From a virus (Duplodnaviria > Heunggongvirae > Uroviricota > Caudoviricetes), in IMG/VR virus record IMGVR_UViG_2648501500_000009: a stretch of DNA of 18,660 bases, one strand, 5' to 3'. Numbering within the stretch: the stretch's first letter is position 1; every line of letters starts with the position of its first letter. The notes under the pieces were generated by a model. That model searched no databases. It saw nothing but the letters and a program-made list of their open reading frames with translations, and had not been told where the DNA came from. The translations under genes and the position numbers were made by a program. Below, in pieces: positions 7,266-8,650 of this stretch.

Positions 7266-7592
7266 TCATAACACCGTCGGACAACGCAAATCGTAAATCA
7301 GCACGGACACAGAAAACGGCAGTTCCCCCTGCACGAGGTCTTCCCGCTCAGCAAGATCCGGATTCCGGTACAGCATCCCGGTCAGTCGCATGGCAGCCCC
7401 CTTCATCCGGGTTAATGCCTCGCCCGGGATCAGCTCACCGTCCTCACGAATCACTTTATCCCGGCTGCCCTGAATGTAGGCCAGCAGCACGGCGGTAGCC
7501 TGACGAACCTTGTCCATCAGCATGTCATCATCCGCGTCATGGTCAACACGCAGATGTGCCTTGATCTCTTCCAGTGTCAGTAATGCCGTCAT
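7266..7592 (-). CDS. Head-tail connector protein (HK97 gp6-like)
   Basis: 108 aa; N-terminus MTALLTLEEIKAHLRVDHDADDDML resembles the gp6-like connector family signature (L-x-E-x-K-x-H-L-R-V-D); start overlaps the stop of the upstream gene (ATGA). Confidence 0.7.
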   Translation of the reverse strand: MTALLTLEEIKAHLRVDHDADDDMLMDKVRQATAVLLAYIQGSRDKVIREDGELIPGEALTRMKGAAMRLTGMLYRNPDLAEREDLVQGELPFSVSVLIYDLRCPTVL

Positions 7593-8650
7593 TTTCCGCC
7601 TCCTGCATCCCGTCCACGTTTTGCAGCCAGGGTCCAGCCTGATGAATGAGCTTCTCCGGGTTTATCACCGGTCATACTGTTGCAGTGCCACAGCGAGCCC
7701 CCCCACGTCACCGTATCGCCGGGGTGGTAGGTTTCACCGGCTCTGAACACACCGCGGTAGAGCATCACCGGCAGGGAAAATGTTTTTTCCGTACGCTGGC
7801 CACTGCTCTGCCGGACCACCACAGTGAACGACCGTTCGCCGGTCATGCTGACGTCAATATCGGCCACCCCGTCAACCAGGCATTCCCATCCCCGCATCCC
7901 GTGCGTTTTTTCATACGCCCGCCAGAGTCCGCCCTGGTGTGTGGCATACGTGCCCCGGGGAAAGGATTTTTGATCGTCAATAGCGGGGAGCACTTCCAGT
8001 GCCGTGGCATCACGCCCGTCCTGCGGAGCCGGCAGGGCTCTCACCGCATCCAGAACAGCCTTCTGCAGAACATCGGGATCATAGTCACGACCATCACGCG
8101 GAACAGGAATATGGCTTACCGCCTCTTTCACCATCTGTTCAAGCATCGGACGCACATCATCGGGGGTAATACTTTTGCCGTCCGCCGGTACCGGAATATT
8201 CGCGACCGCATCATTCACCGCCTTCTGCAGTACTTCCGGATCGTAATCACGACCATCACGCGGAACAGGAATATGGCTTACCGCCTCTTTCACCATCTGC
8301 TCAAGCATCGGACGCACATCATCGGGGGTAATACTTTTGCCGTCCGCCGGTACCGGAATATTCGCAACCGCATCATTCACCGCCTGCTGCAGTACATCCG
8401 GATCATAATCACGACCATCACGCGGTACCGGAATGGCCCCCACAGCGTCATCCACCATCGCCTGCAGAACCGGATGTACCTCATCCACCGTCACATGCTT
8501 CCGTAATACCGCCGAAAGGGAAGCCAGTTTCTCTTCAAACGCTTGTGCCTGCGCGGCCATCTTCCCCTCAAATGTGCGCTGTAAATCCGCCAGCACCGTG
8601 GAGAATTCTTCGCCCAGTGCACGAATAATGGACAGTTCCCGTTCCGTCAT
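7589..8650 (-). CDS. Hypothetical virion-module protein with internal tandem repeats (353 aa); N-terminal coiled coil, repeat region, Trp/Cys-containing C-terminal domain
   Basis: Translationally coupled on both sides (ATGA overlaps with portal stop and connector start). Contains about six ~27-aa repeats ([I/L]PVPxDG...), encoded by two near-identical 162-bp DNA units. Confidence 0.75.
   Translation of the reverse strand: MTERELSIIRALGEEFSTVLADLQRTFEGKMAAQAQAFEEKLASLSAVLRKHVTVDEVHPVLQAMVDDAVGAIPVPRDGRDYDPDVLQQAVNDAVANIPVPADGKSITPDDVRPMLEQMVKEAVSHIPVPRDGRDYDPEVLQKAVNDAVANIPVPADGKSITPDDVRPMLEQMVKEAVSHIPVPRDGRDYDPDVLQKAVLDAVRALPAPQDGRDATALEVLPAIDDQKSFPRGTYATHQGGLWRAYEKTHGMRGWECLVDGVADIDVSMTGERSFTVVVRQSSGQRTEKTFSLPVMLYRGVFRAGETYHPGDTVTWGGSLWHCNSMTGDKPGEAHSSGWTLAAKRGRDAGGGK
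8045..8430 (-). repeat. In-frame tandem direct repeat, 162-bp unit, two full copies (8076-8237, 8238-8399) plus partial flanking copies
   Basis: Direct comparison of the sequence: the units starting ggatcatagtcacgaccatcacgcggaacagg at 8076 and 8238 differ at only a few positions; a third partial copy starts at 8400. Confidence 0.9.

Follow-up and report, generated by a model that had tools for sequence, protein, structure and literature searches.

ORF X, a putative detachable portal extension encoded between the portal and head-tail adaptor genes of an Escherichia coli Shiga toxin prophage

The window analysed here is a stretch of 18,660 nucleotides (IMG/VR record IMGVR_UViG_2648501500_000009) and represents a long-tailed lambdoid Shiga toxin (Stx) prophage of E. 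coli, of the Pankowvirus type. On its minus strand, between the genes of an HK97-family portal protein and a gp6-like head-tail adaptor, lies an open reading frame (ORF) that is referred to here as ORF X, or X (Table 1). X is a genuine gene within the phage head module and is coupled to both neighbours by ATGA overlaps. This is the arrangement described in an original prediction made from the sequence alone, which also correctly gave the surrounding genes (an HK97-type portal, a protease-capsid fusion upstream of it and a connector downstream of X); synteny bears out the assignment to the head module. Translation of X would proceed by termination-reinitiation at the ATGA overlap, tying its output to that of the portal. 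The protein is acidic overall (isoelectric point (pI) 5.1), its spacer region more strongly so (pI 4.4). Seven public E. coli contigs hold the exact X sequence, with no Pfam hit on record. The finding that goes beyond the original prediction is that in many close relatives, one G apart from the split form, portal and X make up one ORF, with X as its C-terminal half.

Most of the NCBI homologues listed as best matches are entries named 'phage portal protein' that read '...AMFRGDTEKMTERELS...' across the junction, the N-terminal helix of X following directly after the portal tail; the portal of the window ends in 'AMFRGILRK*'. The two forms differ in a run of G located 14-18 nt upstream of the portal stop. 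Scans of IMG/VR for the exact junction returned 23 contigs with five G (split) and 37 contigs with six G (fused), the latter with intact portal-X ORFs of 812-1028 aa. When contigs whose end truncates the gene are set aside, 14 of 18 split and 18 of 24 fused contigs carry an intact X. Fused phages include WGPS6, YYZ-2008, vB_EcoS-783R2 and Pankowvirus 2851 (portal coding sequence of 859 aa), the last of which is reportedly infectious. The split form is found in most Stx1a and Stx2c phages, in BP-4795, 1717 and JLK-2012, and in phi330, a plaque-forming siphovirus using OmpC (PMC12502783). Continuity of portal and X is thus absent from the window (five G) and present in the 37 IMG/VR contigs, in phage 2851 and, outside the E. 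coli phages, in the P0230 lineage and Moraxella phage Mcat9 (see below).

The five-G and six-G alleles are largely tied to distinct sequence variants, and for this reason they look like lineages and not like a rapidly switching tract. The portal of the five-G allele ends in AGG GGG ATA CTG AGA AAA TGA, with three rare E. coli codons among the last seven sense codons, and a hypothetical -1 slip on G_GGG before AUA would restore the fused protein. A conserved programmed frameshift was nevertheless rejected, given the separation of the two alleles and a frame of X relative to the portal that differs among genera, which points to simple translational coupling.

A HMMER scan of 1.84 billion representative proteins identified 5695 family members at E <= 1e-3 and 637 at E <= 1e-30, the 5695 representatives being clusters at 50% identity. 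Comparison of X with the ORFs of the 40 best-matching Stx1a, Stx2a and Stx2c phage records showed identities of 81-97%, and 1247 of 5426 complete E. coli genomes have a match to the portal-X-adaptor stretch, in 523 cases covering at least 80% of the stretch. A scan for related loci, made with an alignment of the C-terminal domain of X, returned 52 loci from Enterobacterales, Pseudomonas, Burkholderiales, Alteromonadales-type genera, Rhizobiales and Sphingomonadales. The gene order protease/major capsid protein (MCP) - (small ORF) - portal - X is found in 46 of these, usually with TerL before it and the adaptor Ad1 after it. X abuts or overlaps the portal stop in 46 of the 52 loci, and the remaining six are contig fragments or degraded copies. 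Because 46 of the 52 loci show a separate X after the portal, the split state is the common one and probably ancestral.

Fusion of X to the portal arose at least twice beyond the E. coli phages. P0230, a protein of 1237 aa, consists of a portal, an acidic linker, a coiled coil, about 22 repeats of the form 'LPxPEPLPDI..MV..AV' and the C-terminal domain. Nine diverged IMG/VR contigs (L118-L126) encode single portal-X ORFs of 1096-1243 aa that are 61-100% identical to P0230, in head modules that are otherwise intact. The spacer of this lineage is made of some 22 copies of a different, 21-aa unit and has thus been re-invented with another repeat. The second case is the portal of Moraxella phage Mcat9 (479 aa), which ends in one copy of the last module of X, about 25 residues past the conserved QQQNYSL motif, with the adaptor as the next gene. 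This copy is 47% identical to X residues 298-346 over 49 aa (E 2e-13) and is the only part of X present at the end of the Mcat9 portal, which marks the last module as the core of the family and the C-terminal tail of the portal as its natural place.

The family architecture comprises an N-terminal amphipathic helix, 0 to about 20 units of a helix plus 'PxPxDG', and a conserved C-terminal domain (consensus GDTVTWGGSLWHC...KPG...W.L..KRGRDG). In one sub-type of the family a 'DGVG.AGALIDR.G.L..TL.NG' segment stands in place of the first half of this domain and the last module is kept. Collagen-like G-x-y tails follow the C-terminal domain in P0128, P0132, P0142, P0152, P0154 and others, implying trimers. 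An AlphaFold2 (AF2) monomer model of X, built with an alignment of 41 sequences, predicts a long N-terminal helix, repeats folded as single helices with 12-residue linkers between them (predicted local distance difference test (pLDDT) 50-70) and an all-beta domain at residues 220-345 (pLDDT 96-98). The N-terminal helix is presumed to be the portal-proximal or oligomerisation end. The helical segment and the C-terminal domain of the original prediction were thus recovered in the AF2 model, and its DNA repeats by repeat finders.

The 162-bp DNA repeat in X lies far above chance expectation (Table 1). At the protein level, residues 73-205 hold five units initiated by IPVP (IPVPxDG) in the order A-B-A-B-A, 25 or 29 aa long, with a partial unit on one side and, on the other, an LPAPQDG unit at the beginning of the C-terminal domain, so that the earlier count of about six repeats of some 27 aa was a fair one. 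Relatives of X are 245, 353, 407, 461, 515 and 569 aa long, with a step of 54 aa or 162 nt; copy number does vary, as had been predicted from the near-identity of the DNA units. Many E. coli prophages match the window in megablast only from the repeat region on (query 844/859-2901; hits H52-H64; compare 7200-8043), and a boundary of mosaicism or divergence may therefore lie where the repeats meet the C-terminal domain. In H53, the sole case inspected, the portal-X region is still complete.

X has no family in Pfam or NCBIfam, in agreement with the earlier statement that it matches no standard head protein, and comparisons with Pfam, NCBIfam and PDB sequences gave only sub-threshold or spurious matches (TetR_C_35, DUF4244, FliG_N and designed helical repeats). 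PF28083 and similar accessions in precomputed lists are apparently faint matches, since the exact X sequence has none on record. No homology of X to scaffold or protease families was found in Pfam, PHROGs, NCBIfam or the PDB, and no MuF domain (PF04233) was detected at E <= 0.01 in Pfam, the PHROG matches being to its own family only. X also lacks any match to PF04860 or TIGR01537, the upstream 454-aa ORF having the complete domain.

The C-terminal domain carries a faint but consistent resemblance to carbohydrate-binding modules of families 5 and 12 (CBM5/12). Pfam CBM_5_12 (PF02839) matches residues 303-325 with 21.1 bits (E 3e-4), under the gathering cut-off of 26.2, and the family profile matches PDB chains with CBM5/12 at E 3e-4 to 7e-3. 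Foldseek of the whole X model gave no match in the PDB at E <= 1e-3; the matches listed against the PDB and BFVD are to fibres and to collagen-like proteins of phages, in which small CBM-like modules follow one another. The C-terminal module of X has the small three-stranded-sheet fold of the chitin-binding domain. In chitinase ChiA1, W687 of the 'GWEP' motif is the main chitin-binding residue. A MAFFT alignment with the ChiA1 domain (1ED7) places this Trp in a four-residue insertion ('LAGW') that is absent from five diverse members of the family, which have D/E-K/R-P there. The CBM5/12-like fold is thus retained, but the classical sugar site is not. The missing Trp favours a protein-binding role for the domain, and there is a precedent in phage T4, where a chitin-binding-like insertion domain bridges capsid subunits (PMC3185693).

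Conservation of the C-terminal domain equals or exceeds that of the core head proteins portal and capsid across bacterial orders. In Enterobacterales the identities are 49-71% for the C-terminal domain, 51-69% for the portal and 56-76% for the protease-MCP; the corresponding values are 57-60%, 50-52% and 49-50% in Pseudomonas, and 50-57%, 42-45% and 36-39% in Burkholderiales. In the same comparison the N-terminal helix of X was undetectable beyond Enterobacterales, and neck and tail proteins diverge much faster or are replaced. This pattern would fit a domain with a conserved partner, unlike a host-specific receptor binder or fibre tip.

Annotation of X is inconsistent, with 'portal protein', 'portal protein B', 'hypothetical protein' and 'frameshifted' pseudogene all in use in GenBank and PGAP records. 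RefSeq PGAP treats the arrangement in two ways, either as a portal plus a hypothetical protein or as a single 'phage portal protein, frameshifted' pseudogene (NZ_AP024921.1 1870-4454). The label 'portal protein' is shared by PHROG 1289, which covers X alone, and PHROG 2271, a fused profile of 859 positions; on PHROG 1289 and on the GenBank records it derives from fused ORFs such as PHROG 2271. In a study of the Sakai prophages, the portal function of Sp3, Sp6, Sp9 and Sp12 was scored 'D' (Table 1 of PMC2669165).

The order of genes on the minus strand of the window is lysis cassette, TerS, TerL, a Peptidase_S78/Phage_capsid fusion, a 73-aa ORF, portal and X, followed by the Ad1 adaptor, Hc1, a gp10-like protein, the tail terminator, the major tail protein, the tail chaperones, the tape measure and minor tail proteins. 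No separate gene for a scaffold is present in the head module, whose protease and capsid form one fusion. The position of the 73-aa ORF is kept in related Enterobacterales loci, where it is 55-58 aa long; in E. coli the ORF extends 55 nt past the called start of the portal. The major tail protein possesses a C-terminal Ig-like domain (Ig_2, I-set; Hoc-like PHROG matches), a surface-display domain on the tail tube. The tail assembly chaperones form a Phage_TAC_1 and Phage_tail_T pair in the common G/GT layout, whose two members are normally joined via a -1 frameshift.

Table 1. Positions in the window of ORF X, its parts and neighbouring features
Feature	Position	Strand	Details
ORF X, putative portal-appendage protein	7589..8650	-	Intact, 353 aa plus stop, ATG start
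ATGA overlap, portal stop/X start	8647..8650	-	X ATG 8650-8648, portal TGA 8649-8647
ATGA overlap, X stop/head-tail adaptor start	7589..7592	-	X TGA overlaps connector ATG
Run of five G	8662..8666	-	14-18 nt upstream of portal stop; six G in relatives places portal and X in one frame
N-terminal amphipathic helix, X residues 1-52	8495..8650	-	AF2 helix at residues 3-50, pLDDT about 90; heptad pattern weak
Acidic spacer, X residues 53-205, helix + 'IPVPxDG' linker units, number variable	8036..8494	-	AF2; length classes of relatives 54 aa apart
Conserved all-beta C-terminal domain, X residues 206-353, CBM5/12-like modules	7592..8035	-	
Last CBM-like module, X residues 296-346, universal core of the family	7613..7765	-	Mcat9 portal end; PDB profile match; ChiA1 alignment
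Tandem repeat array	8058-8434		Tandem Repeats Finder, single array: period 162, 2.3 copies, 94% matches, score 684
Two 162-bp tandem DNA units	8043-8204 and 8205-8366	.	93-94% identical; repeat search
Degenerate third 162-bp copy	8367-8528		62%; repeat search
HK97-family portal	8647..10011	-	454 aa, about 70-residue tail past the Pfam domain; PF04860 E 2e-79; TIGR01537 E 4e-109
73-aa ORF between protease-capsid fusion and portal	9957-10178	-	PHROG 829
Prohead protease-major capsid protein fusion	10223..12160	-	645 aa; same conserved module
gp6-like head-tail adaptor (Ad1; Phage_connect_1)	7266..7592	-	Next after X in most related loci
Major tail protein	5339-6124	-	C-terminal Ig-like domain
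Tail assembly chaperone pair	4654-5333	-	Phage_TAC_1 and Phage_tail_T

With about even probability, X is a portal-crown appendage, a detachable C-terminal extension of the portal that faces the interior of the capsid. In the portal structures of HK97, SPP1, T4, P22 and phi29 the C-terminus lies in the crown, inside the capsid, and by analogy with these portals the fusions make an interior location of X the most likely one. The N-terminal helix of X would join the flexible C-terminal tail of the portal, a join that in many relatives is the peptide chain itself, and X would thereby become part of the portal vertex at its crown, toward the interior of the procapsid or capsid. The acidic helix-linker repeats would then serve as a flexible spacer, free to vary in length, and the CBM5/12-like beta domain as the working end that binds a conserved phage partner. 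We guess that X binds the capsid protein, either on its inner face or at its protease/scaffold part, and in this way couples or anchors the 12-fold portal to the 5-fold shell as the head assembles. The more specific picture, possible but tentative, is one of up to twelve acidic, length-variable tethers on the crown inside the capsid, whose Trp-less CBM5/12-like ends would grip the interior of the capsid or scaffold, or the DNA. If it is true, such tethers solve portal-shell coupling where protease and capsid are fused, and in Stx phages a single-G indel toggles the tether between free and fused while recombination between the 162-bp units resizes it.

Several points weigh against a crown appendage inside the head. 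The interior placement leans on the topology of other portals, and prohead protease could process the fused forms, in which case fusion would be uninformative on the final location. A strongly acidic appendage of 150-800 residues, in up to 12 copies, would be unusual in a DNA-filled head. A collagen-like tail occurs in 15 of 150 family representatives, the layout of coiled coil, spacer and knob is fibre-like, and the nearest relatives in fold other than CBMs are external fibres (the 7-7-1, Milano and Pa193 tail fibres, and collagen-like phage proteins in BFVD). Model confidence for the spacer in AlphaFold reaches only pLDDT 50-70. A literature search found no solved structure of, or paper on, the X family, and no proteomic, cryo-electron microscopy or genetic data on any member; the phi330 study gives mass spectrometry maps solely for its short-tailed phages (PMC12502783).

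Among the roles named in the original prediction, that of an internal head protein fits the present data, and those of a decoration or cementing protein or a head fibre are disfavoured by the portal fusions and by the conservation of the C-terminal domain. An external neck or head fibre or decoration would have its coiled coil anchored at the vertex, its repeats as a stalk and its CBM-like knob bound to a surface glycan. Besides the fibre-like layout and the collagen-like tails of some members, this would account for a fold common to phage tail fibres and tailspikes and for a stalk whose length varies with repeat number, like surface fibres. It is unlikely all the same, since in three lineages X functions while covalently joined to the portal C-terminus (with a linker of only about 25 residues in Mcat9), which together with portal topology speaks against an external decoration, cement or head fibre. 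The knob is conserved like portal and capsid in phages of hosts from E. coli to Variovorax, unlike receptor-binding tips, and it lacks the canonical Trp for chitin binding. Pfam, PHROGs and NCBIfam gave no match to a known decoration family, and the capsid gene lies upstream of the portal and does not adjoin X. Loss of the same Trp counts against an ejection (pilot) protein, which would be stored at the portal and exit via the tail with the DNA, its CBM-like end binding peptidoglycan or another envelope component. For this role speak the position right after the portal, as in SPP1 gp7 and Mu gpF-type proteins, the possibility that the modelled beads-on-a-string chain of single helices and modules of about 50 residues could fit the tail channel, and peptidoglycan as a conserved ligand that would be present in all hosts. 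The fused forms, however, would be trapped unless cleaved, homology to MuF is absent and these siphophages already have a tape measure (1088 aa) for envelope passage, so that an ejected X is improbable.

Cleavage is central to another explanation, in which X acts in assembly only: a portal-tethered scaffold or nucleator would recruit the protease-capsid fusion and then be degraded by the prohead protease, leaving none in mature virions. In its favour, the module lacks a dedicated scaffold gene and encodes protease and capsid as one protein, X co-evolves with portal and capsid, and removal by the protease would explain why both split and fused alleles are tolerated. A highly ordered and conserved beta domain, with collagen-like tails in some members, is nevertheless unlike known scaffolds, and the chance of this explanation is judged to be low. 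That the window carries merely a frameshifted portal pseudogene, with the downstream ORF no gene of its own, is highly improbable. PGAP gives the same arrangement that label in NZ_AP024921, and prophages of enterohaemorrhagic E. coli are frequently defective (PMC2669165), but the split form, in which X has a start codon of its own that overlaps the stop of the portal, prevails across several bacterial orders (46 of 52 loci), and on this synteny the pseudogene reading was rejected. The split arrangement also occurs in the plaque-forming phi330, X is intact in most uncut split-allele contigs (14 of 18) and the short portal keeps the whole PF04860 domain.

About one in four complete E. coli genomes contains a member of the X family, members in Stx1a, Stx2a and Stx2c phages included. 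Recognising X as a separable appendage settles its annotation, and split portals need no longer be counted as prophage defects. X bears on how portals are coupled to shells made from protease-capsid fusions, and phages 2851 (fused) and phi330 (split) form a natural pair for asking what lies at the inner side of an HK97-type portal.

Comparison of X as a putative crown appendage with known systems shows partial likeness to several of them. The gp1 'barrel' of P22 is an extra helical segment on the portal C-terminus that projects from the crown; the fused relatives of X are literally such an extension, and X begins with a predicted helix of 48 residues. The two share no sequence similarity, however, X is usually a separate polypeptide whose helix is followed by an acidic repeat spacer and a beta domain, and the disordered linker between the crown and the helix of X makes a rigid barrel unlikely. 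With SPP1 gp7 and Mu gpF (PF04233), X shares a gene position directly downstream of the portal, an inferred association with the portal and the character of an accessory, not a core, head protein; it differs from them in lacking PF04233 and in its fold and architecture, and those proteins belong to other types of head module. Unlike proteins with CBM5/12 (PF02839), and unlike the insertion domain of T4 gp23/gp24, X has no enzyme or fibre context and its module is tethered to the portal. Phage fibres (the phi29 head fibre and the tail fibres of 7-7-1, Milano and Pa193) resemble X in their succession of coiled coil, spacer and knob, in their CBM-like modules and in occasional collagen-like tails, whereas the gene position of X, its fusion to the portal C-terminus and the conservation of its knob across hosts argue against external receptor binding.

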